A DNA stretch of 64,000 nt. It comes from an uncultured bacterium (GTDB lineage Bacteria > Oederibacteriota > JAAXVQ01). The DNA is taken from assembly GCA_964604705.1 (NCBI GenBank), contig CAZSAP010000001.1, positions 363,500 to 427,499 on the forward strand, written 5' to 3'. The translations under genes and the position numbers were made by a program. Below, piece after piece: positions 7,574 to 55,013 of the stretch (its first letter is position 1; every line of letters begins with the position of its first letter). The notes under the pieces were generated by a model. It worked only from the letters and a program-made list of their open reading frames with translations, was not told the DNA's origin and did no database searches.

Positions 7574-7658
7574 ATGGTTATCAATTCCAAGAGAACCGCT
7601 AGGCATGCCCTTACGGATTTTCTTTTGCATTTTTTATTCACTTTCCTTTTATAATTGT

Positions 7659-9578: not shown

Positions 9579-9600
9579 TTACATGCTCCTTATAATTGAC

Positions 9601-9671
9601 TGCCATGTCGAACAAAGTGAGAAATCTTGTTTGTCAAAGACAGCTCTCTCACCAGCGTTCGAGATGACAAC
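9601..9671 (-). promoter_or_regulatory. Conserved structured element (copy 2) upstream of cargo gene C
   Basis: On the minus strand, GTTGTCATCTCGAAC...GTTCGACATGGCAG forms a 13-bp closing helix with the bulge at the same position as copy 1. It has compensatory differences (GAG/CUC becomes AAC/GUU) and an internal GUGAGA...UCUCAC helix. Confidence 0.4.
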
Positions 9672-9708
9672 TCATTTTTTAAAAAACAACATAGCTGATA
9701 TTTTATCA

Positions 9709-9740
9709 TCGTAGGGGCGACCCGGTGGTCGCCCCTACGA
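9709..9740. terminator. Perfect 14-bp stem hairpin between cargo genes D and C
   Basis: tcgtaggggcgacc-cggt-ggtcgcccctacga, followed on the plus strand by attttcttttgtaattttt. On the minus strand it lies 57 nt after the D stop codon. Confidence 0.5.
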
Positions 9741-9796
9741 ATTTTCTTTTGTAATTTTTAATCACTTTCCATTTTCAATTTTCAATTCTCGATTTT

Positions 9797-11665
9797 CTAT
9801 TTAACCACCGCAACTTTACTCTTCCCAACCTCTTTGCCATCCAACAGAATACGTGCGATGTAAAGTCCGGGTGCCACGCTAGAGCAATCCCAGACAACCA
9901 CCCCACGCCCCGCAGGCAGTGAGTCTGTGACCACACCCACCCGCTCCCCGTTTAAATTGGTCATTTGGATTTTCACCTGTACGGCCCGATCCGGGTTCAG
10001 GAGAAACTTCACCTGCTCGCGCCCCGGGTTAGGATACGCTAGGAAAAGCTTACCCGTTAAATCGACGTCCTCCAAAGCACTGCGCGGTGTTGCGGTTAAG
10101 GTCGCGGCGGCTGCACCCGAGGTGGGTGTCGGAGTGGCTGTGGGTGTGCTGGTATGGGTCAGTGTCGCTGTCAAGGTAGGTGTAACTGTAGGCGAAGCTG
10201 TGCTTGTAGGTGTGACTGTACTTGTGGGCGTATACGCCAAGCTGCAGCCCATGGTGTTTGAGTGCCAGGTCTGGTACACACCGTTGCGGGCGCGTACGCG
10301 GTAATAATACGTCCCTTGACTGGTCAACCCCGTGACCGACCACGAGGTAGCGTTCCCCACCAGGCTATTTCCCCAGCCGCTGACCAGATTGATAAACATG
10401 TTATCCGTAGCCACGTCCAGGGCATAATCCGTGGCGCCAGCAACGGATTGCCAGTTGGCGGTAAACGCGGTTGGGCTTTGCACAGTAGGCGCCAGCGCCA
10501 CAGGCAAGGTGCCGTTATATTCCACGCTGCCTTTGTCTGCCGTGTTCACCCGCAGAAACCCGCGCGCATCCACAAAGGGTACACTTCCGCCGGTGACTGG
10601 ATCGACGGCGAAGCTGCTGCTTGCAGGCAAACATGTCTGCACATACCCGCCGTAATCAGCCAACGGTGCTAAATTCGCAGGCACCTTGCTCGCTTCCGTG
10701 CCCACCACGTCTCCGGAGGTCCAGGTGTACGTATATGCCCCAGTAGAACCCACCAGATTATTTCCCAAAGACGTAAAGACTCCGCTAATTAATAAAATGT
10801 CGGAATTGCCTCCGGTTTGCACTTGATTGCCAGCCACGATGCAAGATTGCATACTGGTTGTACACGTATCGAAAGCAATCCCCCCAATACCATTGGTCGT
10901 GTTGTTGCCGGTAATGGTACAGTGATTCATCGTCGCTGTACTAATCCCGAAAAGAATGGCGCCGTTACTCTGCGAGTTATTTCCATAGATCGTAACATTG
11001 CTGCAGATGATGCTCCCCATGCTTGTACAGATCGCGCCGTTATTTTGAGCAGAATTATTGCTGATCAAAGAATTGTAAAGCTCTGTTTGCGCATTGTAGG
11101 CAAACAGACCTCCTCCAGAGGTGTTCGAACTGCCACTTCGCGTGGCGTTGTTGTTTACCACCTGGCAGCGGTTTAGGGTCAACGTGCCTTGGTCATTGTA
11201 AATACCGGCCCCCGAAGCACTCACAATGCTGGCCACCGCGTTGTTATTGGCCACGCTACACTGATCCAGTGAAAGCGCCGCACCTGAGTTGATGCGGATG
11301 CCCGCGCCATTGCTGTCTGTGATTTTGCCATTGCAAACCGTCATTCCTGAAAGTACGCTCGCGCCCGAAGTAACATCGAATACCCGGAACAAATTGCCGC
11401 CACTCACATAGAGCCTGGATACACCAGGACCCACGATGGTCAAACTTTTGTTGATCGTCAGCGTGGACCCTAAGGTAATGGTAGCGCCGGCGGGTAGGTT
11501 AAAATCGATGGTTCCTCCGTTCGCAGAATCCGCTATGGCCTGACGCAATGTCCCAGCGCCGGAATTCGCATTGCTGGTAACCGTAATGGTCGCCGCCTGG
11601 GTAGAGACCACCGACAACACCCACACCCCTAAAAACCATCCTAATCCCACATGTCGCTTAATCAC
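9797..11665 (-). CDS. Secreted CSLREA-motif beta-helix protein with FN3-like domain, Thr/Pro linker and T9SS-type C-terminal domain (cargo D; tandem duplicate of E)
   Basis: 622 aa with a GTG start preceded by AAAAGGAG and a 6-nt spacer. The N-terminal ~90 aa are almost identical to E ([31 protein letters not shown]). Motif YALDVATDNMF...YYYRVRARNG is FN3-like. C-terminus ends ...KVAVVK. Confidence 0.8.
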   Translation of the reverse strand: MIKRHVGLGWFLGVWVLSVVSTQAATITVTSNANSGAGTLRQAIADSANGGTIDFNLPAGATITLGSTLTINKSLTIVGPGVSRLYVSGGNLFRVFDVTSGASVLSGMTVCNGKITDSNGAGIRINSGAALSLDQCSVANNNAVASIVSASGAGIYNDQGTLTLNRCQVVNNNATRSGSSNTSGGGLFAYNAQTELYNSLISNNSAQNNGAICTSMGSIICSNVTIYGNNSQSNGAILFGISTATMNHCTITGNNTTNGIGGIAFDTCTTSMQSCIVAGNQVQTGGNSDILLISGVFTSLGNNLVGSTGAYTYTWTSGDVVGTEASKVPANLAPLADYGGYVQTCLPASSSFAVDPVTGGSVPFVDARGFLRVNTADKGSVEYNGTLPVALAPTVQSPTAFTANWQSVAGATDYALDVATDNMFINLVSGWGNSLVGNATSWSVTGLTSQGTYYYRVRARNGVYQTWHSNTMGCSLAYTPTSTVTPTSTASPTVTPTLTATLTHTSTPTATPTPTSGAAAATLTATPRSALEDVDLTGKLFLAYPNPGREQVKFLLNPDRAVQVKIQMTNLNGERVGVVTDSLPAGRGVVVWDCSSVAPGLYIARILLDGKEVGKSKVAVVK

Positions 11666-11725
11666 TCGCTACTCCTTTTGGCTATGCCGATTTTCTATTC
11701 TCTTTTTTCTATTGTCTTTTAATGT

Positions 11726-13630
11726 CTAGCGTACGACCGCCACCTTGCTCTTCCCGATCTCTTTGCCGTCCATGGAGATGCGAGCCAGATAAAGTCCGGG
11801 TGCCACGCTACGGCAATCCCAGGTTATTGTCCCTTTGCCGGCTGGAATGTCACCCATAACCACGGCTACCTGTTCCCCATTTAGATTGAATAAAACAATT
11901 TGAATCTGCACCGCATGCTCTGGGTTAAACATAAACCGAATCTGCTCGCGCCCCGGGTTAGGATACGCTAGGAAAAGCTTACCCGTTAAATCGACGTCTT
12001 CCAAAGCACTGCGCGGTGTTGCGGTTAAGGTCGCGGTTGGCACCGGGGTCTGTGTGCTCGTAAACGTCGCAGCGGCTGCACCTGAGGTGGGTGTTGGAGT
12101 TGCTGAGGGTGTACAGGTTTGGGTCAGTATCGCGGTCAATGTCGATGTAACTGTAGGCGTCGCCGTGCTTGTGGGTGTCACGGTGCTCGTAGGCGTGTAG
12201 GCTAGGCTGCATCCCGTCGTGTTCGAGTGCCAGGTCTGGTACGCACCGTTGCGGGCGCGAACGCGGTAATAATACGTCCCTTGACTGGTCAACCCCGTGA
12301 CTGACCACGAGGTGGCATTGCCCACCAGGCTATTGCCCCAGCCACTGACCAGATTGATGAACATATTATCCGTGGCCACGTCCAGAGCATAATCCGTGGC
12401 CCCAGTCACCGCCTGCCAGTTGGCCGTAAACGCGGTTGGGTTTTGCACCGTGGCAGGTAGAGCCACGGGTAATGTGCCGTTGTATTCCACGCTGCCTTTG
12501 TCCGCGGTGTTCACCCGCAGAAACCCGCGCGCATCCACAAAGGGTACACTTCCACCGGTGACTGGATCGACGGCCAAACTACTGCTCGCGGGCATGCATG
12601 TCTGCACATACCCGCCGTAATCAGCCAACGGTGCTAAATTCGCAGGCACCTTGCTCGTTTCCGAGCCCACCACGTCTCCGGTGGTCCAGGTGTATGTATT
12701 TGCCCCAGTAGAACCCACCAAATTGTTTCCCAAGGACGTGAATGTTCCGTCAAAAAAAATGTCGGAATTGGCACCGGACTGCACTAGATTGCCGGCCACA
12801 CTGCAAGACTGCAGGGTGGTTGTGCAATTAAAGCAAGCAATTCCCCCAACACCATTTGCCGTATTGTTGCAAGTAATGGTGCTATGATCCAAGGTCACTG
12901 TGCTGCCCGCGCAATACACGGGGCTGTTAGTCTGCGAATTATTTCCGTAGATCGTGACATTGCTGAAGGTTAATGTCCCCGAATAACCATTAATCGCACC
13001 GCCAATTCGGGCAGAATTATTGATGATCGTAGAATTGTAAAGCGCTGTTTGCGCAAAATATGCAGACAGTCCTCCCCCAAACGTATTCGGACCGGAAGTG
13101 GTGCGCGTGACGTTGTTGTTCGCCACCTGGCAGCGGTTTAGGGTCAGCGTGCCTTGGTCATTATAAATGCCACCTGCTTCAGCGTCCATACCGCTGGCAA
13201 CCGTGTTGTTATTGGCAATCGTGCACTGGTCCAGGGAAAGCGCCGCGCCTGAATTGATACGGATGCCTGCACCATTGGTGTCAGTGACCTTGCCATTGCA
13301 CACTGTCATTCCGGAAATAAAGCTCGTACCCGAAGTAACGTCGAACACCCGGTACAAATCGTTTCCACTCACATAGAGCCTGGACACACCTGGGCCCACG
13401 ATCGTCAAACTTTTGTTGATGGTCAGTGTGGACCCTAAGGTAATGGTAGCGCCGGCGGGTAGGTTAAAATCGATGGTTCCTCCGTTCGCAGAATCCGCTA
13501 TGGCCTGACGCAATGTCCCAGCGCCGGAATTCGCATTGCTGGTAACCGTAATGGTGGCCGCCTGGGTAGAGACCACCGACAACACCCACACCCCTAAAAA
13601 CCACCCTAATCCCGCATGTCGCTTATTCAC
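11726..13630 (-). CDS. Secreted CSLREA-motif beta-helix protein with FN3-like domain, Thr/Pro linker and T9SS-type C-terminal domain (cargo E)
   Basis: 634 aa with a GTG start. The same AAAAGGAGTAGCGA-GTG upstream context as D. The C-terminal domain has diverged from D's. Confidence 0.8.
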   Translation of the reverse strand: MNKRHAGLGWFLGVWVLSVVSTQAATITVTSNANSGAGTLRQAIADSANGGTIDFNLPAGATITLGSTLTINKSLTIVGPGVSRLYVSGNDLYRVFDVTSGTSFISGMTVCNGKVTDTNGAGIRINSGAALSLDQCTIANNNTVASGMDAEAGGIYNDQGTLTLNRCQVANNNVTRTTSGPNTFGGGLSAYFAQTALYNSTIINNSARIGGAINGYSGTLTFSNVTIYGNNSQTNSPVYCAGSTVTLDHSTITCNNTANGVGGIACFNCTTTLQSCSVAGNLVQSGANSDIFFDGTFTSLGNNLVGSTGANTYTWTTGDVVGSETSKVPANLAPLADYGGYVQTCMPASSSLAVDPVTGGSVPFVDARGFLRVNTADKGSVEYNGTLPVALPATVQNPTAFTANWQAVTGATDYALDVATDNMFINLVSGWGNSLVGNATSWSVTGLTSQGTYYYRVRARNGAYQTWHSNTTGCSLAYTPTSTVTPTSTATPTVTSTLTAILTQTCTPSATPTPTSGAAAATFTSTQTPVPTATLTATPRSALEDVDLTGKLFLAYPNPGREQIRFMFNPEHAVQIQIVLFNLNGEQVAVVMGDIPAGKGTITWDCRSVAPGLYLARISMDGKEIGKSKVAVVR

Positions 13631-13681
13631 TCGCTACTCCTTTTGGCTACGCCGATTTTCTATTCTCTATTTTCTATTGTT

Positions 13682-15850
13682 CTAGCGAACAACCGCCACC
13701 TTACTCTTCCCAATCTCTTTCCCATCTTGCAGCACGCGCACCAGATACAAGCCTGGTGCAACTGTGGTACAGTTCCATATCACGCTGTTAACATTATCTC
13801 CCGTGACTTGAGCGCTTAAGGTGGCCACGCGTTCGCCGCTCATGTTGTATATCTGAATCTTCGCCTCACCCTCGCCTGTGGGCTGAAACGCCAAGGTTAT
13901 CTTGCCTTTACCCGGATTCGGATACGCCACAAGGGTTTTGCCTTTCAGATCAAGTCCACTGCGTTCCAAGGTCGCTGTCAGCGTGGGCGTGTTGGTGGGC
14001 GTCAGCGTTACAGTTGACGTAAGGGTAATGGTCGCCGAAACCGTCTGCGTGGCGGAGATCGTCGAAGTCGCTGAAATGGTCGGGGTAGATGTGAAGGTCA
14101 TCGTGGGCAAGACCGGCGAAACAGTCGAGCTGGGTGTCGCGGTCGGTGTGACCGAGGCCGTGGCCGACTGGGTCCGAGTAGGTGTGGCCGTAGAGGTCGG
14201 AGTGGCCGTAACCGAGGGTGTGGCCGTAGTGCTCGACGAGGGCGAGGTGGCCGTGGCGGTCGGTGTGGCCGTTATGGTCGCAGTCCGCGTGGCCGTATAG
14301 GTAGATGTGCTCGTGCGTGTCGGTGTGGAGGTACGGGTAGGGGTTTGTGTAATCGTGGGCGTAGCCGTAGGTGTATAGGTTACCGTTGACGTCAACGTCG
14401 GAGTCGCCGTGGTGGTGGGCGGCGTTCCGGTGGTTAAGCAAGAAATCGTGTTGGAGTGATAGGTCTGTTCCGTTCCATTGAGGGCGCGCACCCGGTAGTA
14501 ATAGGTCGTGCCGGAAAGTAAACCGGTCACGCTCCATGAGGTGGCATTGCCTACCAGACTGTTCCCCCAGCCACTGACCGGGCTGGTAAATCCACTGTCT
14601 CTGGCCACGTCCAAGGCATACCCTTGCGCGCCGATGACCGCGTTCCAGTTGGCCGTGAAGCCGTTGTCCCCCGTGCCCGTTGCCGCTGTGGCTACTGGCA
14701 GCGTGCCGCTGTATTCTGCCGAGCCCTTGTCCGCAGTGTTTACGCGGAGGTATCCGCGGGCATCCACCCACGAGGCGCTGCTGCTGGCTGGGTCAATGGT
14801 GGAACTACCAACGTTGGGCAGACACACGGGGACATACCCACCGTTGTCCGCGAGACTACCCAGCTGGGCATCCTGTGGGCTGCCCGAAGTACCGATTAGG
14901 TCACTGGCGTCCCAGGTGTAGAGATACGTTGCATTCCTGATCCCCACGATATTATTTCCCAGAGACGTGAGACTGCAGGACATAAATAAAGTGTCTTCGT
15001 TCCAACCGCCACCATTGAGGTGCAGATTTTGAGCCACCACTGTATTCTGGAGGAAAAGCATCGAACCAATCATGACCATTTCCGTCGAGTCGGCCCGGTT
15101 CCCGGTGATGGTGCAATTGATCGCCGCCAAGGTACACGACGAGTAGCCCAGCAAAGAACCGTATCCAGTGGCTGTATTGTTGGAGGCTGTTACATTGACC
15201 AGCGTAGCGGAACTGCCCGATTGGGCAATCCCCGACCCCCAAGACCCGGCATTCTCGGAGATAGTGCTGTTGTATACATACAAGGGGCCGGTGCTGTAAA
15301 TGGCACCGCCATAGGAATTGCCCGAACTAAACGGAATAGCATTGCTCCGTACCGTACAATGGTTCAAGGTCAATGTCCCACCCCGGTTGGCAATACCGCC
15401 TCCACATATCCCTGAAACCAGATCCACCGCGCGATTGTATTGGATCGAGCACTGTTCCAATGTCAGCGTGGCTGCACTGCTCATATAAATACCTGCACCG
15501 CCGTTGGTTGTGTCCGTGGTCCGCCCATGGGCAATGGCGAGTCCGACAAGGGTATTACTGCCACCGGTAACCGCCAAAACACGTACTGTGTCCTGCCCGC
15601 TGAGAATGAGCTGCGTTGCCCCCGGTCCGACCACGGTCACACTCTTGGTCAAGGCCAGTGTCGAACTCAGGTTAATGGTGGCAGGATATGAAAGACTAAA
15701 GGTAATGACATCACCATTGCTCGCATCAGCCAACGCTTGCCGCAGCGTGCCCGCCCCGCTGTCCGCCGAACTGGTAACCGTGATGGTGACCGCCTGGGCC
15801 GATGCTGTTAAATACAATCCCAAACTCAGACTTACCAGAATACGTTTCAT
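13682..15850 (-). CDS. Secreted CSLREA-motif beta-helix protein with long Thr/Pro/Ser linker and T9SS-type C-terminal domain (cargo F)
   Basis: 722 aa. Signal peptide [20 protein letters not shown], then [27 protein letters not shown] ~130-aa T/P/S linker follows. C-terminus ...[25 protein letters not shown]. Confidence 0.8.
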
Positions 15851-15954
15851 GATTACTCGCCTTTGTGTGAATTTCCCTGCAGAAGGGTGCCAGAGACGGC
15901 AGAGATCTTACCAAATCAACCTTCAGGGTACAACCTTTTGGTTCAATGACAATT

Positions 15955-15997
15955 GTAAAAAAAAAAACGCCCTTTTTGGAAATCCCAACGGGGCGTT
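15955..15997 (-). terminator. Rho-independent terminator downstream of cargo gene G
   Basis: aacgccc (15966-72) pairs with gggcgtt (15991-97). On the minus strand it is followed by an 11-T run (rc of the a-run at 15950-15965). Confidence 0.6.
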
Positions 15998-16081
15998 TTC
16001 CGAACGTTAAAACACTAGGCCGACCGCCGGTCGCCTCTACGTTTTTTTAAACTTCACTTTCCATTTTCGATTCTCGATTTT

Positions 16082-18202
16082 CTATCTTACCACCGCGACT
16101 TTGGTCTTCCCAATCTCTTTCCCATCCTGCACAACGCGCACCATGTACAAGCCCGGTGCGATGGACCCACAGTTCCATATCACACTGGCTGTGGTTTCAC
16201 CGCTTACCTGCGCGTTTAAGGTTGCCACACGTTCGCCGCTCATGTTGTATATCTGTATCTTCGCCTCGCCATTACTTGTAGGCAAAAAGGCGATGGTGAT
16301 TTTTTCTTTACCTGGATTGGGATACGCTAAAAGTTTTTTACCAAAAAGATTTAAGCTTGATCGCTCAGGTGATGCTGTGGGCGTGGGGGTCACAGTTGAA
16401 GTCGTTGTGGTAGTAGCAGTCTGAGTAATGGTTGCCGATACTGTGAGTGTGGGCGTGACTGTAGCAGTTATTGTGTGCGTAGCGGAATGAGTGTAGGTCG
16501 CTGACACAGTCAGCGTGGGCGTAACGGTTGCTGAGGCTGTGGCTGTAGGCGTACCCGTAGGTGTCATGGTCGTGGTACTGGTACGCGTGGCGGTTGGACT
16601 TGAGGTCCGGGTTGGTGTAGCAGTAGGCGTGGCCGTGGCACTGGGCGTGGGTGTGAATGTTGGCGTCACGACCATGACATTGGTCGAATAACACGATGTG
16701 CCATACTGGGATTGATTCGTGGAGAGCGCACACACATTGTTCCCAGCAGAAAGCCCGCCTGCCACATTTACCGCCCAGGTATAAGGCCCGGTTCCACTAC
16801 TTGAGGTGGTGTATCCAAGTAACCTCAATGCACCGCCTTGATCGCCCCCAGTGCGATTGGCTTCTGCTGCATACACTTCCACATACTCTCCAGGATAATA
16901 CGACGTCCCCTCCACCCGAGTCGGTTGTGCAAGCGTGATCACCGGACGCATGGATGAAGGACGGATATTTTCATTATAGACATAGGGGTTGGTGTTGCTG
17001 CCCGCAAACCCGCATTGCGTGTTGCCGTAAAACTGATACAACCCCGTGCTCGGCGGTGCATACAATTGGGTGTTGTAAAGCAAATTGCCCACACCGCCGT
17101 TGGGTGTTCCGATGATGTTGCCGGTCGTGGTATTGTAAAAAGTAATATAACTAAAATCGCCAATCCCTTGTGTCCCGGCTACGTTGGTGCCAAAGCAATT
17201 GCCAACAACTGTATTACTGCTCGCTCCCGTATAAAAAATGACATGAGTCATATTGCCGGTAAATATATTTTTATCAAGCACCGGGTTGCTTCCGCCCACC
17301 AAATTCCCGGTTCCCTTGTCGAAAACAACGCCGTATTGGAACGGATGGATACCATTCGTACTGCTGATGCCTATCAAATTGTTTTGGATATAATTGTTGT
17401 TGCTGGGGTTGTAGCCCCCGATTCGAATGGCAGTTCCACCAGTGTTGTCCGAGTGGCCAAAAACATTACCCCACCCAGAGAGCGCAATACCCACCCGGTT
17501 GTTCCCGGTTCCGTCCACCATAAGATCAGCGCTAGCCATGCTAAACGTGCCATTGTTGATGGCAACAGACTGGTCAGAACTTAATCCGAATATATTTCCC
17601 GCAATCACATGATTGCTTCCATAGGCCATTACACCATAATTGGAATTGCCTGAAATGACATTACCCTCGCCTGCCAAGCGATCGCCGCCAATGAAAATGC
17701 GGTTGCCATTACCAATGTTGATTCCAATATAATTGCCCTGCCCACTGGAGTTATTCCAATCGGTTCCAATGGCGCAACGCATGATGCGGACATCACTTAC
17801 TTCATTTTCGATATCTATGGCATATAAAGAATGCACCAAGGCCATACCCGTCAGCGTGCTGCCCGAAGAATCATAACCTCCAGATCCAGTGTATTTGTCC
17901 ATGAAAAATATCGCAACGCTCGAAGCGCTGCGGGAGCCTATGGTTACTCCATTGCCTTCAATAATGACTGTATTTGTAATGACGATTTGGCTATAAACCG
18001 TGATGGAGTTGGGCACCTGGCAGACAATGGTCTGCACGCCCGTGGTGGTGTTCGAGGCGGCAATGGCCTGACGCAATGTTCCTGGACCGCTGTTTTCCCG
18101 GCTGGTGACCACGAACGTCTCTCCCCAGGCAGCCTGAGTACATATCAACAGTACGAGCATGGCAATCCAACTCAAATTCATTTTCGCCTTCATCATCTTC
18201 AA
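16082..18202 (-). CDS. Secreted CSLREA-motif beta-helix protein with Thr/Pro linker and T9SS-type C-terminal domain (cargo G; paralog of the edge gene at 1..1728)
   Basis: 706 aa. MNLSWIAMLVLLICTQAAWGETFVVTSRENSGPGTLRQAIAASNTTTGVQTI. C-terminus ...[59 protein letters not shown]. Confidence 0.8.
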   Translation of the reverse strand: MKMMKAKMNLSWIAMLVLLICTQAAWGETFVVTSRENSGPGTLRQAIAASNTTTGVQTIVCQVPNSITVYSQIVITNTVIIEGNGVTIGSRSASSVAIFFMDKYTGSGGYDSSGSTLTGMALVHSLYAIDIENEVSDVRIMRCAIGTDWNNSSGQGNYIGINIGNGNRIFIGGDRLAGEGNVISGNSNYGVMAYGSNHVIAGNIFGLSSDQSVAINNGTFSMASADLMVDGTGNNRVGIALSGWGNVFGHSDNTGGTAIRIGGYNPSNNNYIQNNLIGISSTNGIHPFQYGVVFDKGTGNLVGGSNPVLDKNIFTGNMTHVIFYTGASSNTVVGNCFGTNVAGTQGIGDFSYITFYNTTTGNIIGTPNGGVGNLLYNTQLYAPPSTGLYQFYGNTQCGFAGSNTNPYVYNENIRPSSMRPVITLAQPTRVEGTSYYPGEYVEVYAAEANRTGGDQGGALRLLGYTTSSSGTGPYTWAVNVAGGLSAGNNVCALSTNQSQYGTSCYSTNVMVVTPTFTPTPSATATPTATPTRTSSPTATRTSTTTMTPTGTPTATASATVTPTLTVSATYTHSATHTITATVTPTLTVSATITQTATTTTTSTVTPTPTASPERSSLNLFGKKLLAYPNPGKEKITIAFLPTSNGEAKIQIYNMSGERVATLNAQVSGETTASVIWNCGSIAPGLYMVRVVQDGKEIGKTKVAVVR

Positions 18203-19898: not shown

Positions 19899-19915
19899 AG
19901 CAACACCTATGCCAA
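19899..19915 (-). promoter_or_regulatory. Sigma-54 (-24/-12) promoter of glnA
   Basis: Minus-strand TTGGCAT-AGGTG-TTGCT, with GG-N10-GC spacing, about 85 nt upstream of the glnA ATG. Confidence 0.6.
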
Positions 19916-20037: not shown

Positions 20038-21612
20038 CTACTCATTTGTAGCCAGATTCTTTTTACTGGTCTTATACAGTTTGGGATCAATGTTGTATTT
20101 CTGAAGTCGATAATTGAAAATACGCTCAGTGAGACCGAGTTCGGCTGCGGCTCGTTTCTGAAACCCCCGATTTTTCTTGAGTGCATCAATAATCAACTCA
20201 CGCTCTTTATTACTGACAATCTCACTCAACGAACCGGCTTGTGTCACGGCTTCGTTGCTGGTAACCATCCGCAAAGAAGGCGGCAAATGCTCCGAACGAA
20301 TGACATCCCCATCGCAGAGCAACACGGCCCGTTCTAAGCAATTTTCCAATTCACGTACATTCCCCGGCCAATGATAGCTGGTCAACATTTCTATGGCCGG
20401 TGTGGAAATTCGCAAGATGTTTTTGTGGTTCCGCTTCCCATAGGTCTCCAGGAAAAAGTCCGCCATCAACATAATGTCATCCTTGCGATCACGCAAAGCC
20501 GGCAAATAGATGGGAAAAACATTAATCCGGTAGTACAAATCCTCACGGAAAGAACCGTGCTTAATGGCTTCTTCCAAGTTTTTATGCGTGGCCGCAACAA
20601 TACGCACATCCACCTTAATGGTTTCACGTCCGCCCAACCGCTCAAACTCGCGGGTTTGGAGCACGCGCAACAGCTTCACCTGTAAATTCGGTGGAAAGTC
20701 GCCGATTTCATCCAAGAATAAAGTACCACCGTCCGCCCATTCAAATCGTCCTATTTTGCGTTCCAGAGCACCGGTAAATGCACCCTTTTCATGGCCAAAA
20801 AGTTCACTCTCCAACAATGTCTCCGGGAACGCATTGCAATTTACTTTGATCAAGGGTTTGGAGGCGCGCGGACTGGCGTAGTGAATGGCGTTGGCCACCA
20901 ATTCCTTACCCGTACCACTCTCCCCGCGGATTAATACCGTAGAAGGGCTGTCTGCGACTTGCTCAATTAATTTATAGACTTCTTGCATGGCATTGGAATT
21001 CCCCACCATGTTTTGAATGCTAAACTTGCCTTTCAAGTCTTGCTTCAAGCGTAAATTTTCATCACGCAAGATTTGTCGATCCTGTTCAACCCTGCGGTTA
21101 AGCCGAATGGCTTGAGCAATCATAGGGGTCATGATTTTTAAAATCTTCAAATCGTCTTCCAGATCATGCGCGCCATCGTATTCCTTATCCACACTCAAGG
21201 CCCCGATGGTGTTCCCCTCAATCTTGATCGGGACACACAGAAACGCGATCTGGCGTGTGCTCTTTATGTCGCGTGCACCCGTACGGTTCAAAAAGCGGCT
21301 GTCTTTGCGAATATCCGGAATGGTCACCGAACGTCCGGTTTGCACCACCTTTCCGGTAATCCCTTCGCCCACACGATAGCGCCCTAGTTCCTGAGCTTTG
21401 GCAGATAAACCGTGGGCTATGGAAATATTCAACATGCTGGTCTTCTCGTCCAAAAGCGTGATGGTTCCGCGATCCAACTTGCGCTTGTCTGAGAGCAGCT
21501 GCAAAATCCCGCGCAACATGGCATTGAGATCAATGGTGTCGGCCACAATCCCTGCTGTTGCCAACAAGAGTTCTATTTGTTCTTCATTTACATTTTTGAC
21601 AGTTGAAGGCAT
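20038..21612 (-). CDS. Sigma-54-dependent transcriptional activator (GAF sensor + AAA+ GAFTGA domain + Fis-type HTH; NifA/NtrC-like, no receiver domain)
   Basis: 524 aa. ESGTGKELVANAIHYAS, GAFTGA, and C-terminal AAAELGLTERIFNYRLQKYNI. The N-terminal ~170 aa are GAF-like. Confidence 0.85.
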   Translation of the reverse strand: MPSTVKNVNEEQIELLLATAGIVADTIDLNAMLRGILQLLSDKRKLDRGTITLLDEKTSMLNISIAHGLSAKAQELGRYRVGEGITGKVVQTGRSVTIPDIRKDSRFLNRTGARDIKSTRQIAFLCVPIKIEGNTIGALSVDKEYDGAHDLEDDLKILKIMTPMIAQAIRLNRRVEQDRQILRDENLRLKQDLKGKFSIQNMVGNSNAMQEVYKLIEQVADSPSTVLIRGESGTGKELVANAIHYASPRASKPLIKVNCNAFPETLLESELFGHEKGAFTGALERKIGRFEWADGGTLFLDEIGDFPPNLQVKLLRVLQTREFERLGGRETIKVDVRIVAATHKNLEEAIKHGSFREDLYYRINVFPIYLPALRDRKDDIMLMADFFLETYGKRNHKNILRISTPAIEMLTSYHWPGNVRELENCLERAVLLCDGDVIRSEHLPPSLRMVTSNEAVTQAGSLSEIVSNKERELIIDALKKNRGFQKRAAAELGLTERIFNYRLQKYNIDPKLYKTSKKNLATNE

Positions 21613-21848
21613 ATCTCACTCTTCTATATTGAATTGACAAAATTCAGCGCGGGCCAATTTATAACATTTTTGTATTTATGTAAAGAATTTAAACTACTTT
21701 TTTGAAAAAAAACCATACTTCCAGACATACACTTCCCTAAACCCTGAACATCCGGATAAATTTTTCTTCGCAATAAAACACACATAAAAGAAGCTTTTCC
21801 AGAAATCACAACTACCAAAATGTAGTTAAAATACAAATTCCTACACCT

Positions 21849-21865
21849 TCGGCATATTAATTGCT
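21849..21865 (+). promoter_or_regulatory. Sigma-54 (-24/-12) promoter of amtB1-glnK1
   Basis: cGGCATattaaTTGCt: GG at 21851-52 and GC at 21863-64 (N10 spacing), about 60 nt upstream of the ATG at 21926. Confidence 0.55.
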
Positions 21866-21925
21866 TTTAACTACAACTTCGAAATTATGATAAAAATCAT
21901 TACGCGAATCAAAGGAGCTACACAA

Positions 21926-23933: not shown

Positions 23934-23951
23934 TTGGCATCCATCTTGCAT
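23934..23951 (+). promoter_or_regulatory. Sigma-54 (-24/-12) promoter upstream of the porin gene
   Basis: TTGGCAT-CCATC-TTGCA: GG at 23936-37 and GC at 23948-49, about 140 nt upstream of the ATG at 24094. Confidence 0.55.
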
Positions 23952-33518: not shown

Positions 33519-34724
33519 TTATTCCTCCAGCCGTGCTTCTTGGCATTTGGCATCCAAACACCGAACCACCTGGGGAATAAAAACCACAATCCCAACCAAC
33601 GAAAGCGCCGCCGAGGCCGCAAACGCCATGGAGAGCCCGTAATGCTTCCCCAGCCAGCCAATGCCCGGCCCTACAATAAAATACGCAAGGCGGAAGAGCC
33701 AGCTTTGGATGGACATAACCGTGGCGCGTTTGTCGCTGAAGGTTTCTTCATGAATATGCTTTCCCAAAATGGGAAAGGTTAAGCCTCTTAGCAAAGTGAC
33801 GCTGTAGGCACCCGCCAAGGCCCAGAACCCCGGCGCCCAGGCCAAAAAGAGATACCCCAACACCACGGGAATCGGCAACAGCCAGAGTATCCGGGTAGGT
33901 CCCACTTTGGCTTCCCATTTGTAGGCATAATGGCTGCCCAGCGCGGCGGGCAACGACAATGCGGCCCACAAGGCTCCGAAGAGCCAAACGGGCACATGTT
34001 TTTCTTGCCACAGGGGCTGGTACAGCCACACCCCCAACATGGTGCTTAGGCCACAGGCCGCCATGAGGGGAATCACCCAGCGCACAACCTTGCTTTTCAC
34101 AAACACAAACCGGGCGATTTTATACAAGCCGTACCAGGTCCCGCGCGGGTGACCGTTAAATACGCGATGCGGCTCATGAATGTTTAAGCATAAAACAAAG
34201 GCCACAAGCGCAGCCACTCCCGTGAGAAAAAAGGTCACCTCCAGCGGCAGCCACCCGGCCAGGAACCCTCCTGCCAGGGCCGAGACGCCTTCCCCCCAAT
34301 GATTGCCGGCGTATTGTTTGCCCTCCACCTGGGTGAACCGTTCGGTTTCCTTAAGTTCAATGAGGCTTTCGTACACCAAGGCCGTATCGGTTCCCGAGAG
34401 AAACCCAAAGGCCAAACCCAAATAAATTTCAGCAAAGACAAACTGGCCAAATGTATGCGCAAACGTGTAGAACATCCAGCCCGTGGCCGCAATGCCCGTA
34501 CTTAGCAACAGGGTTTTCTTCCGACCCAAACGGTCGCCAATGAACCCGGTGGGAACTTCAAACAGGAGCACCGAAACCGAAAAGATGGCCTGCAACCAAA
34601 AAACATCCAAAAGATCCAAGCCGTATTTGTTCCAATACAGCGTGATGATCGGAATGCAAAACATCATGGCAAAGAGAATGCGCACCCAGGCGATGATGGT
34701 TATGTTTTTTCGGTATAAATTCAT
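33519..34724 (-). CDS. MFS transporter
   Basis: 401 aa, 12 TM segments. MFS motif GDRLGRKKTLL after TM2. Confidence 0.8.
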   Translation of the reverse strand: MNLYRKNITIIAWVRILFAMMFCIPIITLYWNKYGLDLLDVFWLQAIFSVSVLLFEVPTGFIGDRLGRKKTLLLSTGIAATGWMFYTFAHTFGQFVFAEIYLGLAFGFLSGTDTALVYESLIELKETERFTQVEGKQYAGNHWGEGVSALAGGFLAGWLPLEVTFFLTGVAALVAFVLCLNIHEPHRVFNGHPRGTWYGLYKIARFVFVKSKVVRWVIPLMAACGLSTMLGVWLYQPLWQEKHVPVWLFGALWAALSLPAALGSHYAYKWEAKVGPTRILWLLPIPVVLGYLFLAWAPGFWALAGAYSVTLLRGLTFPILGKHIHEETFSDKRATVMSIQSWLFRLAYFIVGPGIGWLGKHYGLSMAFAASAALSLVGIVVFIPQVVRCLDAKCQEARLEE

Positions 34725-34785
34725 GTTATCACTCCTTCCTGACTGATTTGAGTATAGACGTACTGTGTCTCCTCGTGTGTACGGC

Positions 34786-35003
34786 CTCGGGCGGGCAAAT
34801 CTTTTCTTTTTTTACAAAATGCGTCGCTTATGCTTCGTCCCCGAAGGTCATCAACAATTTGACGCGTAACGTCCTCAAACGCGTTTTCGAACCAGGATGC
34901 GTCGGTAAAACGCTTTATGGTTATTATGGGTGGCCCTGGCATAGCCGCTGTCAGCGAGACATGAAGACGCATTTTGTAAAAAAAGAAAAGATTTGCCCGC
35001 CCG
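34786..35003. repeat. 39-bp perfect terminal inverted repeat flanking a 140-bp core (MITE-like or giant hairpin)
   Basis: Left arm tcgggcgggcaaatcttttctttttttacaaaatgcgtc (34786-34824) is the exact reverse complement of the right arm 34965-35003. It lies between the MFS and GH130 genes. Confidence 0.6.
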
Positions 35004-35129
35004 AAACCTCATTGCCGAATTCACCAGGTCTTACTCCAAGTCATCGGTCGTAAAAATAAAGAAGCGGAGCCCCGCTTACGCGAAACTCCGCCTGCCCCAC
35101 TGTTTCAGGTCCGCTGTGATTACCGCATG

Positions 35130-36353
35130 CTAGCGTTTCTGTCCTTGGGCATCAAAGGTCCGCACAAAATCAATCAGCGCCTGGTACCGCATGCGCGCCA
35201 CACCTACGCGTTCATCGGCGGCACCGTAACTGATCAACAAATCATCCCCGACTTTAATCAAGCCCGTGACAAAGACACACGGGGTTTTAAACTTGTTGGG
35301 CATCTCCCAGGGGTCCTGGGCAAACATCACACGTTCCGAGCAGCGGTGGGTGATTTTTGGGAAACCCTTCGCTTGTTCTTCCAAAATCATAAACGACTGG
35401 GTATACCCGACCACTGCATCTTGCTTGCCGTGGTAACACAAGAGCCATTCCTTCGCCGAGATCCGGATGGGCGGAGTGGAGGCCCCAATGCGGTCCCCTT
35501 CCCAAGGAAAGACCGGCGAGGCCACCAAGGTTTGGCTCTTGGTCTCGCTCCAAAGGGTCTTGAGACTCTCCGAGGCACAGATAAACATCGAGGGCAATTT
35601 TTCCGTAACCCCGGGATAGTTCGTGGGCACAAACGGACGGTGGAGGCTGACGTACTGCGGGCGTCCGTTGATCGTCAATTTTTCCGGAAACAACACCACA
35701 TCGCGGTCCTCACCGTATTGCGGATCGGTCAGGTGAATCACATATTGAAAGGCACGTTCGTATTCGCCCTTGGCCAAGAGCGCCAAATCCACTTTGTACA
35801 AGACATTAACCGTGACATTCTCCGAAGCGGCTTTGCCAAAGGGATTTTCCGCGGTCTTGATCCACAGCGGCGCACACTGCGAGGGTTCGTCATGAATCCA
35901 GTACGGACCCGGAGGCATCAAACGGCAGGCCACAATGACGTAGCACTGACCTTCCAAGAAAAACAAACGCGGGTCCTCAATGCAGCCGTTGGCATGATTG
36001 GTAACCGCTTCCCCGTCGCAGTTGCGAATGGTGACATCCTTGATCTCATACGCCAAGGCCGGGGCCAAGGCCGGTCGGGAAAAATCCGGAGTCCAGGTCC
36101 GGCCTTTATCCTCACTGTAGGCGTAGCCCAGGAAGATAGGATACGGCAGCGGCCGTCCGGGAATTTGCTTCTGCGGCCATGGACCTGTGGCGCGAAACAA
36201 CATATGGATGCGTCCGGTGTTCGGATCTTCGATCACCGCGGGGTTAAGCACCATCTCATCGGCCCAAGGTGAGCCTTTTTGCGGTTCCAACACCAGGGTG
36301 CGTGAGTGAATAAAGTCAATGGTCATGGGATTAAAGCTCCTTGAAAAAGTCAA
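35130..36353 (-). CDS. Glycoside hydrolase family 130-like (beta-mannoside phosphorylase/glycosidase family)
   Basis: 407 aa. VLNPAVIEDPNTGRIHMLFRATG, EDPRLFFLEGQCY and LFPEKLTINGRPQYVSLHRP match GH130 conserved blocks from memory. Confidence 0.6.
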   Translation of the reverse strand: MTFSRSFNPMTIDFIHSRTLVLEPQKGSPWADEMVLNPAVIEDPNTGRIHMLFRATGPWPQKQIPGRPLPYPIFLGYAYSEDKGRTWTPDFSRPALAPALAYEIKDVTIRNCDGEAVTNHANGCIEDPRLFFLEGQCYVIVACRLMPPGPYWIHDEPSQCAPLWIKTAENPFGKAASENVTVNVLYKVDLALLAKGEYERAFQYVIHLTDPQYGEDRDVVLFPEKLTINGRPQYVSLHRPFVPTNYPGVTEKLPSMFICASESLKTLWSETKSQTLVASPVFPWEGDRIGASTPPIRISAKEWLLCYHGKQDAVVGYTQSFMILEEQAKGFPKITHRCSERVMFAQDPWEMPNKFKTPCVFVTGLIKVGDDLLISYGAADERVGVARMRYQALIDFVRTFDAQGQKR

Positions 36354-36553
36354 AAGAATTGAGACAGATTAAGGGATTTGTCGGGTTTCGTCAAGCCTGG
36401 TTTTAGGCACCGCCTTTTTGCTTTGAAAACCTGTGCTTAGGGGCACCGATCGCATCCATGTATTCTAATAAAAGCATTCACTTCTGCCTTCTTAAGCCGA
36501 GACTTAAAGTATATCTTCACACACCCTGACTTTATTACCACCGGAGGCCATCC

Positions 36554-39493
36554 ATGTTTCACTTCGTACATAAAATCCTGCGTCTGTTTTCCCTTTTATG
36601 TCTGCTCGTCTTCACATCCGCCGTATCTCAGGCGACGACTTATACGGTCACCTCCGATGCCGACAGCGGCGCCGGTTCCTTACGTGATCAGTTGACCTTG
36701 GCCAACACCAACCCCGGAGCGGATATCATTGATTTTTCCGGTCCCATGTACATTACCGTAACCAGCGGGGCCTTGGCCGTCACCGACCGGGTCCGCCTCG
36801 ACGGCGGTGGCCAGGTGGTGCTTGCCAGTAACGGAAGCCTCATTGCACTGCGTCTGGTGGGAAGCAGCCAAGGCAGCACGATTACCGGCATGGCGTTTGT
36901 CAAGGCCACGGCCATGTACACGCCGGCGTTGGAAATCGCCACCAACAACAACCGTCTTTACGGCTGCCGCATCGGCACCGACTGGAACGACTCCCCAGGC
37001 TTGGGCAGCTATTATGGCTGCAGCGTCTATGGGTCGTTCAATGACATCGGCGGCTCCACTCCGGCCGAACGCAATGTTTTTGCGAACAACAGCATTGGCC
37101 TGCAAACCATGAACACCTGGTGTTGCCGCGTTCGCGGGAATTATTTCGGCCTAAATTCCTCAGGCACAGGTGCCCTGGCCAACATCTATGGGATTGTCGC
37201 CGATTACAATACCCGAGCAACATTGTTTGGAGGCGATCGCCTGGCCGGTGAGGGCAACGTGATAAGCGGCAACAGCGCCTACGGTGTTTATATGGACTCC
37301 ACGGCGTTTGGAAACACACTGTGCGGAAACATTGTTGGACTTACACCTGCCATGGACGCCCGCATAGCCAACCAGTTCGGCATTAGCGTCTACGGAGCCC
37401 GGGGCAACGCCTTCGGTTTGCCGGGCAGCGGTTATGAAAACATTATTTGCGGGAGCTCGGCAAATGGGTTGGAGCTCACGGGAAATGTAGGTTCCGAACC
37501 CGTTCCGCGCTACAACACCATCCGCAACAACTATATCGGTATCACCCCCAACGGAACCGTTTTCGCCAACGATCGCGGAATCTATTTAAACCACGTGGAA
37601 TACACCCTGATCGGAGGCGATTACCTGCTGCAACAGGGCAACCTTATCTCCGGCAATTACAACGAGGGGATTTACTTGTGCGACGGCAACAACAATTCCG
37701 TATGCGGCAATTCCATTGGCACCGATCCTACGGGCAACAACAGCGTACCCAATTCCTACGGGATCTATCTGGGCGGAGGCAGCGGCAACATCCTGGGCAA
37801 CACCTCCACCGGCAGCAGCGTGCTCGGCAACTTAATCTCAGGCAACAATTATCATGGTATATATCTGGATAAATACGTTTTCTCAGCGCCGTTGGTCAAC
37901 AACAGCATAGCCGGCAACCTCATAGGCATCAACCTGGCCAACAACGCGGCCCTGCCCAACGGACGTTCGGGCATCTATGTCAACAATGCAAGTTTTACCC
38001 GTATCGGTGGTCCGGGTGGAGATTTGCAAAACACCATTGCCGGCAATACCCATTACGGCATTGCCGTGGCCAACAGTTCGGATACAACCATCCAAAGCAA
38101 CTACCTTGGAACCGACACTACCGGCACACTGCAAATCAGCAACCAGTTAAACGCAATTCAAATCTCATCGTCCCCACGCACCTTGATCGGCGGCGTGGGC
38201 GGCAACCTCGGGAATCTCATTTGCGGTACCGGAGCCGCAGGCGTGGCCGGCATTTCCCTCAACAACAGCAGCGGCAACACCCTTGCAGGCAATGCCATCG
38301 GCGTGCTTTCCACGGGCGTTCCGGCCTCGCCCAGTTTTACCCATGCTGTTTTTCTGACCAACACCTGCACCGACTCCCTGATCGGCCAACCCACAGGCGG
38401 CCTCGGCAACCTGATGGCCGGCACCACGTACGGCATCACCCTTGGCAACCATACCTGCATTCGAAACTCGTTTTACTCCAACACCGTTTGTGCCTTCGGC
38501 ACCCAGGGTATCCAACTGCTCAGCGGAGCCAATGCCAGTAAAACCGCACCTGTGATTTCCACGGTCGGATTAAGCCTCGCGCAAGGCACGTCCGGCGCCA
38601 ACGACCACATCCAATTGTTCCTCTCCGATCGTGGCGCTGGGGTCAACGGAGGCAGCTTGCGCCTGGTGGGTGAAGGCTCGGCAGACGGCAGCGGCAATTG
38701 GTCCATTGGCGTTTCGGGCCTTCAATACGGCGACTATGTTTCAGCCCTAGCCACGAATGCATCCGGCAGCACTTCCGGCTTTAGCCTGAATTCGGTGGTC
38801 GCCTTGCCTCCGTCTCCCACGCCAAGCCGGACAACCACTTCCACAACCACCCCCACCCCCACGCTCACGGCGACGGTCACACCAACGCCCACAGCCTCCG
38901 CCAGTGCCTCTCCGTCTCCCACAGAAACCCTTACGGCCACAGCCACACCTACGGGCACAGCATCCCCCACGATCACCCCAACCCAAACCCCAACGTCCAC
39001 AGCGACCTTGACCCCAACCATTACCACCACCTACACGGTTTCCTGCACAGCCACGCCCACAAGCACCGTAACCTTCACCTGCACTCCCTCCTCCACCTTC
39101 ACGATCACCCTTACGCTCCCGCCAAGTTTCACGGCCACACATACAACAACACCTTATCCGACTGAAACGGCAACCCCTACGTCTTCCCTCACACCCACCA
39201 TCACCTCCACGCTCACGGCGCAAACTGTAGTACTCTCTCCCTGGGTAGGTACTGCTTTCCCCAATCCCGCACGAGGGCAAGTTAAATTTATTTTACCCGC
39301 GGCCTTGGCCAGCGAAATAACGGTTTACAATCTTTCCGGCGAGCGGATTGCAAGCGTGCGTGAAAACCAAGCTTATACCGAACCCCATATCATCGTCTGG
39401 GATTGTACCGGCATAGCCCCAGGCATCTATGTGGCTGAAGTGAAGGTGGATGGAAAATGCGTCAAACGCATTAAATTTGCATTAGTCAAATAG
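36554..39493 (+). CDS. Secreted CSLREA-motif beta-helix protein with long Thr/Pro linker and T9SS-type C-terminal domain (cargo H; the only plus-strand member)
   Basis: 979 aa. MFHFVHKILRLFSLLCLLVFTSAVSQATTYTVTSDADSGAGSLRDQLTLAN. More than 25 GN..G beta-helix turns. A ~180-aa T/P/S linker. C-terminus ...GIAPGIYVAEVKVDGKCVKRIKFALVK. Confidence 0.8.
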   Translation: MFHFVHKILRLFSLLCLLVFTSAVSQATTYTVTSDADSGAGSLRDQLTLANTNPGADIIDFSGPMYITVTSGALAVTDRVRLDGGGQVVLASNGSLIALRLVGSSQGSTITGMAFVKATAMYTPALEIATNNNRLYGCRIGTDWNDSPGLGSYYGCSVYGSFNDIGGSTPAERNVFANNSIGLQTMNTWCCRVRGNYFGLNSSGTGALANIYGIVADYNTRATLFGGDRLAGEGNVISGNSAYGVYMDSTAFGNTLCGNIVGLTPAMDARIANQFGISVYGARGNAFGLPGSGYENIICGSSANGLELTGNVGSEPVPRYNTIRNNYIGITPNGTVFANDRGIYLNHVEYTLIGGDYLLQQGNLISGNYNEGIYLCDGNNNSVCGNSIGTDPTGNNSVPNSYGIYLGGGSGNILGNTSTGSSVLGNLISGNNYHGIYLDKYVFSAPLVNNSIAGNLIGINLANNAALPNGRSGIYVNNASFTRIGGPGGDLQNTIAGNTHYGIAVANSSDTTIQSNYLGTDTTGTLQISNQLNAIQISSSPRTLIGGVGGNLGNLICGTGAAGVAGISLNNSSGNTLAGNAIGVLSTGVPASPSFTHAVFLTNTCTDSLIGQPTGGLGNLMAGTTYGITLGNHTCIRNSFYSNTVCAFGTQGIQLLSGANASKTAPVISTVGLSLAQGTSGANDHIQLFLSDRGAGVNGGSLRLVGEGSADGSGNWSIGVSGLQYGDYVSALATNASGSTSGFSLNSVVALPPSPTPSRTTTSTTTPTPTLTATVTPTPTASASASPSPTETLTATATPTGTASPTITPTQTPTSTATLTPTITTTYTVSCTATPTSTVTFTCTPSSTFTITLTLPPSFTATHTTTPYPTETATPTSSLTPTITSTLTAQTVVLSPWVGTAFPNPARGQVKFILPAALASEITVYNLSGERIASVRENQAYTEPHIIVWDCTGIAPGIYVAEVKVDGKCVKRIKFALVK

Positions 39494-43444: not shown

Positions 43445-43933
43445 ATGACGTTGTCCGATCCACTTGAGGCCCCTATTCGTCATGCGCTCGCCCCACTTCC
43501 GTCCGGTGTGACCTTGCTGGTAACCGTAGGCAATTCCCTGCGTTCCGACGATGCGGTGGGGCCTTACCTTGCCGATCGTCTAGCACTGCGTCATCCGGGA
43601 TACCGCCTGCTCCATGTCGGCCATCAACCCGAATCCATGCTCGAAGATGCACCCCCACTCAACCCTAAAAAAATCATTATTCTGGATGCGGCCGAATTCC
43701 AGGGGGTGCCTGGCGAGATCCGCCTCCTCCCGCCCGAAGCGATTCCCCAAAACGCACTTGGCACCCATTCACTTTCCTTAAGCACCCTGGCGCTTACGCT
43801 GCGCCAAACGCTCGGCGCCGAGGTCCACTTTGTAGGCATTCAACCCGTATGTTTTGCTTGGGGTGAAACGCTTTCCCCAGCCGTCCAAGCCAGTGCCGAT
43901 CGCTTGTTGCGCTTTTTCAACGACCTTGTCTAA
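43445..43933 (+). CDS. Hydrogenase maturation endopeptidase (HyaD/HybD/HycI family)
   Basis: 162 aa. LLVTVGNSLRSDDAVGPYLADRL matches the GN-x-L-x-x-DDG-x-G family motif. No hydrogenase gene is in the window. Confidence 0.7.
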   Translation: MTLSDPLEAPIRHALAPLPSGVTLLVTVGNSLRSDDAVGPYLADRLALRHPGYRLLHVGHQPESMLEDAPPLNPKKIIILDAAEFQGVPGEIRLLPPEAIPQNALGTHSLSLSTLALTLRQTLGAEVHFVGIQPVCFAWGETLSPAVQASADRLLRFFNDLV

Positions 43934-46197: not shown

Positions 46198-46214
46198 GAC
46201 AAGATCACACGTTT

Positions 46215-46350
46215 GCGTGGAGGTAGGACTGTGTGGTTGGAAAAGCCTCAGAGGAAATCCTTATCAACAGAGGATTTCCGATGCGGAACGAACCTCTCCG
46301 AGGTGAGTACCTTTTCCAACCACACAGTCCTACCTCCACGCATTTTTTCA
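46215..46350 (+). terminator. Giant palindromic hairpin (31-bp perfect stem) plus T-tract downstream of ilvN
   Basis: gcgtggaggtaggactgtgtggttggaaaag (46215-45) is the exact reverse complement of 46311-41. A nested 9-bp hairpin ggaaatcct/aggatttcc sits at 46253-79. It is followed by cattttttc. Confidence 0.6.
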
Positions 46351-46467
46351 ACAAACCTGTTAGACAGCCCCCTTTTTTTCAGCTACAATTCATGAGTTTT
46401 TTAAAATTTCAACCACTGCCTTACGCCGGCTGCACGCGCCTGGCGTAGGCCCGGAGAGGATTCGATC

Positions 46468-54817: not shown

Positions 54818-54854
54818 TTTTTACCTACAGTGCAAACAAAGTGATGCATGCATT

Positions 54855-54968
54855 GGGCGCAAATGTAAAGATGTGAAAGCATAGAGGCCATCCGTCTCGT
54901 AAAAAGGATGGCCGATCTGAGCGAGGCTCTCTGAACCGAGCGTCTTTCACAGTTTTACATCTGCGCCC
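54855..54968 (+). promoter_or_regulatory. Long imperfect inverted repeat with internal hairpins in the metY leader (candidate riboswitch/attenuator or IR element)
   Basis: gggcgcaaatgtaaagatgtgaaag (54855-79) pairs with ctttcacagttttacatctgcgccc (54944-68), 25 bp with 2 mismatches. It encloses the GGCCAUCC...GGAUGGCC hairpin. It ends 45 nt before the metY ATG. Confidence 0.4.
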
Positions 54969-55013
54969 ACTCAAACATTACTCTACTACTACGCTGTTGA
55001 AAGGGCTATTTCC

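Follow-up and report, generated by a model that had tools for sequence, protein, structure and literature searches.

Two bacterial genes separated by a long, perfectly self-complementary stretch of DNA raise the question of what that stretch is: a mobile element, a switch, a regulatory or processing signal in RNA, a terminator, or an accident of copying. This question is posed here by a 218-bp inverted-repeat element located in a 64,000-nt stretch of DNA from an uncultured bacterium (the window), between a gene for an MFS transporter and a gene of the GH130 (mannoside phosphorylase) family. A sequence-only reading had assigned the element the geometry of a MITE or a giant stem-loop and had named a simple bidirectional terminator as the fallback. 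The flanking genes are as that reading described them, and both lie on the minus strand. The geometry is also supported, and the element constitutes extra DNA in comparison with the nearest relative.

The inverted repeat, its spacer and their signals

The element consists of two 39-nt arms, 100% complementary to each other (39/39) and 140 nt apart (Table 1). The perfect arms and the A/T tract within them are thus confirmed, with positions shifted by +1 relative to the sequence-only reading. The chance expectation for such an arm pair in 64 kb is about 6e-17, and the arm was contained in 0 of 100 shuffles. At the two ends of the element the sequence reads GGCC/TCGG and CCGA/AACC (the slash marks the boundary), and the outward extension of the inverted repeat into the flanks is not significant (P=0.06-0.11). 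The GC content is 41% in the arms, 50.7% in the core and 47% in the element overall. The core, previously described as GC-richer, is therefore so with respect to the arms but not with respect to the window, whose average of 51.7% it equals.

Independent support for the repeat comes from the Logan assembly of run ERR3839026, in which contig L005 matches the window exactly over the GH130 gene, the sequence downstream of it, the GH130-side junction and the first 30 nt of the arm. Because both the junction and 30 nt of the arm are matched, the repeat is not an artefact of one assembly. In this k=31 short-read assembly, which represents the same strain, the contig ends after 30 of the arm's 39 nt (L005:4198-4352). 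A k=31 graph stops at any repeat longer than 31 nt. The break inside the arm confirms the junction and carries no information on inversion. Repeats of 39-nt size will fragment k=31 assemblies, in which an element of this kind would be invisible. The exact GH130 protein is also present in a Logan assembly, and no exact-protein record was found for the MFS product.

Table 1. Coordinates of the features discussed (positions in the window unless a contig is named)
Feature	Position	Strand	Remarks
MFS transporter gene	33519..34724	-	downstream of the element, intact
GH130-MFS spacer	34725..35129	-	405 nt; about 390 nt without counterpart in the relative's 14-nt spacer
MFS Shine-Dalgarno AAGGAG	34732..34737	-	left without a partner in the predicted spacer fold; the hairpin base is about 50 nt upstream
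MFS-proximal arm	34787..34825		TCGGGCGGGCAAATCTTTTCTTTTTTTACAAAATGCGTC on the plus strand; 100% complementary to 34966-35004
Core	34826..34965		140 nt, without coding potential or structure; neither orientation has a recognisable promoter or terminator
GH130-proximal arm	34966..35004		outer junction reproduced in Logan contig L005
Intrinsic terminator of GH130	35052..35093	-	from the terminator scan; 14-pair GC-rich hairpin 35093-35062, then CTTTATTTTT
GH130 (mannoside phosphorylase family) gene	35130..36326	-	upstream of the element
Sigma70-type promoter upstream of GH130	36366..36394	-	TTGACG-17-TAATCT, 12.7 bits, best there
Hairpin b	46214-46342	+ (fold)	arms 32/32 nt, core 65 nt
Hairpin c	54854-54969	+ (fold)	arms 26 nt at 88%, core 64 nt
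Relatives' cupin-metY spacers	L041:1574-1612 and L042:9951-10000		hairpin c absent

On the coding strand, the spacer begins with 36 nt after the GH130 stop codon and continues with the GH130 terminator (-27.5 kcal/mol), 57 nt, the 218-bp element, and 62 nt that include AAGGAG and lead to the MFS ATG. The terminator is separate from the inverted-repeat element. The hairpin formed by the element has an energy of about -114 kcal/mol. In the predicted fold of the 438-nt intercistronic RNA the full 39-bp stem is kept, while the MFS Shine-Dalgarno sequence remains free. The putative GH130 promoter is the only recognisable promoter able to transcribe the MFS gene.

Two open reading frames traverse the element, one of 83 aa on the minus strand (34972->34721) and one of 101 aa on the plus strand (34748-35053). 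The codon usage of both scores like that of out-of-frame sequence, and neither has a match in Pfam. The 83-aa frame has no Shine-Dalgarno sequence, a signal present in 28 of the 39 genes, and is rejected as a gene on the basis of codon usage, the missing Shine-Dalgarno sequence and the lack of a Pfam match. The earlier claim that no ORF of substance exists in the core holds in effect. The start and stop of this 83-codon frame (34721-34972, minus strand) are nevertheless placed in a way that resembles translational coupling, with the ATG inside the distal arm and the TGA overlapping the MFS ATG (ATGA). The possibility that the spacer is a gene remnant was also rejected, as tblastx gave only chance-level matches.

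Searches for known RNAs were likewise negative. No tRNA genes were found, and Rfam 15 returned nothing at the gathering threshold across the window. When the three hairpin regions were searched at E<=1, only chance matches appeared (histone stem-loop, plant miRNA hairpins), the only one for the element being a histone stem-loop at E=0.26. The fold of the core was compared with that of shuffled sequence and shows no excess structure, with z values of +0.45 and +0.48 on the two strands.

Promoters were scored with an approximate sigma70 matrix. With this matrix, the first genes of operons in the window score 9-17 bits, the best site in the whole spacer reaches 6.4-6.7 bits on either strand, and random 250-nt windows have a mean of 7.6. 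No sigma70 promoter is recognisable in the core or at either end of the element. A candidate sigma54 promoter in the core (TGGCCCTGGCATAGC) was discarded as being at chance level, with 98 matches in the window against about 90 expected; the core site also lacks the TTGC that is kept in the one-mismatch matches upstream of glnA and of a porin gene. Inspection by eye also showed an ECF-like motif in the core on its minus strand, GAAAAC-N16-CGCGTC; the motif is both short and degenerate, and the window contains no ECF sigma gene. The stretch from the element to the MFS start includes a -10-like TATACT that has no -35. As for termination, the stem is not followed by a U-tract on either strand, and the terminator scan gives no call inside the element, native or flipped.

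Comparison with relatives and with two other hairpins

The best match of the GH130 gene is found in a Candidatus Goldiibacteriota MAG (90%), followed by FCPU426 MAGs at 65-68%. Judged by these similarities, the source bacterium is to be placed in the Goldbacteria/FCPU426 neighbourhood. The Goldiibacteriota contig (L001/L014) is syntenic with the window over the sulfatase, GH130, MFS, AhpC and M48 genes, and its gap between GH130 and MFS measures 14 nt, compared with 405 nt in the window. In more distant relatives, the MFS gene lies 11 nt behind its upstream gene or overlaps it by 4 nt. Since the gap before MFS is short in near and distant relatives alike, the arrangement in the window is probably derived. 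Among GH130 relatives in 32 genomes, MFS is located downstream only in the Goldiibacteriota MAG, which is thus the one comparator for this spacer.

Compared with its counterpart in that relative, the MFS gene has a dN/dS of 0.05 at a dS of about 2. The low ratio indicates a working gene under purifying selection, which must still be expressed. At a comparator dS of about 2, gain in the window and loss in the relative are not formally separable, and the event is not datable. The extra DNA at the site amounts to about 390 nt. It is larger than the 218-bp element and includes the unrelated GH130 terminator, which is also absent from the relative; consequently, the difference is not that between an empty site and one cleanly filled by the element. 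No inverted repeat of comparable size is present in the relative's syntenic contigs. A comparison of core orientation between near-identical strains found no such strains, all flanking proteins being singletons at 90% identity.

The same locus differs in a further respect. Between the GH130 and sulfatase genes, the window carries a gene for a beta-helix protein of 979 aa whose C-terminus bears a T9SS sorting domain (36554-39493, plus strand). In the Goldiibacteriota relative, GH130 and the sulfatase are divergent neighbours only 33 nt apart, and the 979-aa gene is consequently another lineage-specific difference at this locus.

The sequence-only reading proposed looking for additional copies of the arm and core and for target-site duplications, and neither was found in the sequences searched. 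The 39-nt arm has no other match in the window at <=3 mismatches or with blastn at word size 7, and no second copy exists in 403 kb of related loci. A 31-mer from the arm gave 0 matches in 185,579 species genomes. A 20-mer gave 0 matches in viral contigs and one in JGI metagenome contigs (L008), a chance match inside an unrelated CDS; the genome and metagenome contig collections were scanned with the arm only. The whole spacer had no match among plasmids and phages in a distant blastn search, and no IS with matching ends occurs in the sequences searched. Target-site duplications were sought with boundary shifts of +/-4 nt and lengths of 2-12 nt, giving 81 boundary combinations. These yielded one asymmetric candidate, the 4-nt CCTC; a match of this kind would be expected from chance alone among 81 combinations, and no target-site duplication is accepted.

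The window contains two other long hairpins, designated b and c (Table 1), whose existence had been noted in the sequence-only reading together with the statement that the sequences are unrelated. This statement is correct for the element: alignments of its core and arm to b and c are non-significant (P>0.1), and its membership of the b/c family was rejected because covariance model R1 gave no match at E<=10. It is not correct for b and c themselves. Their cores are significantly similar (P=0.0025). The arms of b show no sequence relationship to those of c, although within each hairpin they pair with one another. On the plus strand the two adopt a common three-way junction, composed of a long P1, a P2 of 8-10 bp and a P3 of 4-5 bp. 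Between b and c, 16 predicted pairs change on both sides yet remain paired, and the G-U pairs in both hairpins favour the plus (gene) strand. The two correspond to no Rfam family, and their covariance model identified no further member in the window or in the related loci searched.

Hairpin b occupies the gap between ilvN and cstA, which measures 270 nt in the window (46198-46467) and 132 nt in the relative (L044:5961-6092). In the relative, ilvN is followed by a simple terminator, a perfect palindrome of 17 bp (L044:5970-6003), whereas the window has the 129-nt hairpin b followed by TTTTTT. Hairpin c is located between the cupin and metY genes, in a gap of 196 nt (54818-55013) compared with 39 or 50 nt in relatives. 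All three long-stem elements are therefore absent from the relative's orthologous spacers, and each lies between co-directional genes. On this comparison the three are to be regarded as lineage-specific gains, and three gains in co-directional spacers make long-stem insertion a recurring event in the lineage. The pattern favours a common insertional origin over a one-off regulatory switch. It also supports the earlier suggestion that the genome is rich in long-stem elements, and three gained hairpins in 64 kb mark it as a promising genome in which to search for an active mechanism that inserts hairpins or keeps their arms perfect. The related pair b and c and the apparently recent gain of all three elements are more interesting leads than the 218-bp element itself.

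Further inverted repeats were recorded that are imperfect. Two are intergenic in the window, at 7490-7577 and 21805-21891 (28 nt at 79% and 27 nt at 78%, with spacers of 32-33 nt). Two long ones lie near GH130 in more distant relatives, an FCPU426 MAG and an uncultured bacterium: L012:5765-5880 (42 nt at 81%, 32-nt spacer) and L010:3414-3550 (23 nt at 96%, 91-nt spacer). The latter two are unmatched by the covariance model built from the two related hairpins of the window.

Candidate explanations and known systems

The explanation preferred here, at a probability of roughly 0.45, is that the element is an orphan foldback insertion with MITE-like geometry which acts, if at all, through an RNA duplex. 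Together with the strong terminator located 57 nt upstream of it, the element now separates GH130 from MFS, and the two would have split a GH130->MFS pair that is tightly coupled in the nearest relative. Since the scan detects no promoter from the GH130 terminator to the MFS start, and MFS is under selection, transcription of MFS probably depends on read-through that begins at the GH130 promoter. In a read-through transcript, the arms would fold into a perfect 39-bp RNA duplex 62 nt before the MFS start codon. Perfect RNA duplexes longer than about 20 bp are substrates of RNase III. The predicted 39-bp duplex is a likely substrate of this enzyme in any transcript that reaches MFS, and cleavage would separate the MFS message from the GH130 message, after which the two would be expressed and degraded separately. 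Passage through the strong terminator, RNase III cleavage and an effect on MFS are all inferred. The modelled duplex is the element's only predictable activity. If this explanation is true, the locus offers a small natural example, from a candidate phylum in which hardly any genetics has been done, of how a hairpin insertion and a terminator can uncouple two genes that a sister lineage keeps translationally adjacent.

The closest known systems are intergenic hairpin repeats of the MITE, Correia and REP type, which the element resembles in kind, with a function that is only predicted. Like prokaryotic MITEs such as QMITE2, it is shorter than 500 bp, has no coding capacity and carries terminal inverted repeats around a core of roughly 140 nt. 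QMITE2 of Coxiella burnetii has terminal inverted repeats of 23-29 bp, a core of 113-145 bp and a folding energy of about -113 kcal/mol (PMC10969869). The transcript of each is predicted to form one very stable hairpin, and, in the manner of MITEs, the element occurs in one lineage where another lacks it at the orthologous site. Its 218 bp, its through-ORFs that do not code and its 39-nt terminal repeats at 100% complementarity all agree with a MITE. However, the flanking direct repeats expected in young elements are missing, and no second copy or parent IS occurs in the sequences searched. The arms are 39 bp long and perfect, in contrast to the 4-30 bp or so that is typical of MITE terminal repeats (PMC10969869); the extra DNA exceeds the element; and at the GC content given above the element is not AT-rich overall. 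Perfect arms without a target-site duplication are an odd combination for a transposon. The MITE interpretation is thus upheld in geometry and in the extra DNA relative to the relative but not in target-site duplication or, within the sequences searched, copy number, and the element is not established as a MITE in the strict sense.

Correia repeat-enclosed elements of Neisseria are similar in being small inverted-repeat elements between co-transcribed genes, and the cleavage of paired ends by RNase III proposed here for the element would extend the analogy. Paired Correia ends are RNase III substrates in mRNA and alter the expression of neighbouring genes, and the cleavage of their TIR hairpins in mRNAs is documented (PMC2649163, PMC10969869). 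Genomes that harbour Correia elements contain numerous copies, each with an IHF site; insertion takes place at a TA, which becomes duplicated, and new promoters can arise at the element ends (PMC2649163; PMC10969869). None of these features is seen in the 218-bp element, which also has no sequence similarity to Correia elements. It also shares with the REP/BIME and ERIC repeats of enterobacteria (ERIC is covered in PMC10969869) the property of a hairpin-forming intergenic repeat between genes of one operon; unlike them, its stem is long and perfect, and it is single-copy in the sequences searched. The hairpins of the 218-bp element and of these enterobacterial repeats also differ in the scale of their families. 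REP/BIME and ERIC are high-copy families with conserved sequence and with stems that are much shorter and imperfect. They act on mRNA stability or processing, and the cistrons flanking them are differentially expressed.

Several other explanations have to be weighed against a foldback insertion. An unlikely one is a functionless local inverted duplication, in which template switching during replication copied 39 nt in inverted orientation within a spacer that had expanded before, and the arms are perfect through recency or quasipalindrome correction. This would account for perfect arms, the missing target-site duplication, the single copy, a core and arms devoid of signals, and extra DNA larger than the element. 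On the other hand, template-switch duplications usually have short spacers, and three long-stem gains in co-directional spacers within 64 kb, two of them with a common core, point to recurrent insertion. Inversion is less probable still: a recombinase encoded elsewhere would flip the 140-nt core between the 39-bp repeats and turn MFS ON or OFF. Like the invertons upstream of cwpV and flgB, the element is a short segment bounded by inverted repeats directly upstream of a gene, 62 nt from the MFS ATG and just past a terminator, and perfect arms without a target-site duplication would be natural for a pair of recombination sites. More than 75% of known invertons are shorter than 300 nt (PMC11602134), and the recombinase need not be nearby nor the promoter inside (PMC2784873, PMC7446863, PMC11602134), as in the promoter-less switches with a distant recombinase at cwpV and flgB of C. 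difficile (PMC2784873, PMC7446863). Nevertheless, neither strand of the core carries a promoter of the sigma70 or sigma54 type, in an organism whose real promoters are easily recognised, and flipping it in silico changes no predicted terminator, promoter or Shine-Dalgarno pairing. A cwpV-type orientation-dependent terminator was sought and is absent from the native and the flipped core. Among the 39 ORFs of at least 150 aa across the 64-kb window, none encodes a recombinase, integrase or transposase. Hairpins b and c are clearly not invertons, having structured cores of 64-65 nt, and one of them being a terminator; as long-stem insertions that do not invert, they raise the prior for a common foldback-insertion origin.

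The remaining explanations assign a specific function to the repeat. If the 39-bp stem were a processing stem of the rRNA type, RNase III would free the core of roughly 140 nt as a trans-acting sRNA. The long perfect stem around a discrete segment fits such a precursor, and the core is not random low-complexity sequence, its GC content being at the window average; but a core that folds no better than shuffles, matches nothing in Rfam, has no promoter of its own and has no homologue in any relative makes an sRNA improbable. It is more improbable again that the arms are paired operators bound by a regulator that would control MFS through DNA looping. The arms offer identical sites whose centres are 179 bp apart, about 17 helical turns and thus in phase, and the TATACT without a -35 before MFS is of the kind found at activator-dependent promoters. 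Yet 39 identical bases go far beyond what an operator needs or selection would keep up, no regulator gene lies nearby, and the relative expresses the same gene pair without such sites. A bidirectional intrinsic terminator deserves almost no credence. The hairpin is intergenic and very stable, but the neighbouring genes are co-directional rather than convergent, the stem lacks a U-tract on both strands, and GH130 has its own canonical terminator upstream (hairpin at 35062-35093). This fallback of the sequence-only reading was wrong. With no function demonstrated for the element and its likeness to a known type of intergenic repeat, the practical use of these results is chiefly in annotation: the element should not be annotated as a gene, an inverton or a terminator.

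Going beyond the orphan foldback insertion, a bolder proposal, which must be considered a long shot, covers two variants. The element, the terminator and hairpins b and c may represent an undescribed Goldbacteria class of hairpin-inserting elements that keep the core, have locus-specific and perfectly self-complementary arms, and remodel operons via co-directional spacers. Alternatively, the element may be a promoter-less, Rho-dependent invertible switch, which would be the first in the phylum.

Other features of the window

Some additional differences and gene arrangements were recorded outside the spacer. Between PHO4 and ilvB, the window contains a gene for a HycI-like hydrogenase maturation protease (43445-43933, plus strand), whereas the relative's gap there measures only 299 nt and has no gene called in it (L044:3702-4000). 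Six large genes form a run on the minus strand (4746-18202); five carry Por_Secre_tail (T9SS) sorting domains, and one encodes a DUF285 protein. The ribosome-binding regions of the adjacent genes at 9797-11665 and 11726-13630 are identical over 18 nt, suggesting that a tandem duplication took place recently. Finally, sigma54-type -24/-12 sites (TGGCAT-N5-TTGC and a variant) are located at 19900-19914 (minus strand), 21850-21864 (plus strand) and 23935-23949 (plus strand). They precede glnA, an ammonium transporter gene and a porin gene, and they adjoin a gene for a GAF-sigma54 activator (20038-21612). Together, the putative sites and the activator gene look like a nitrogen regulon.
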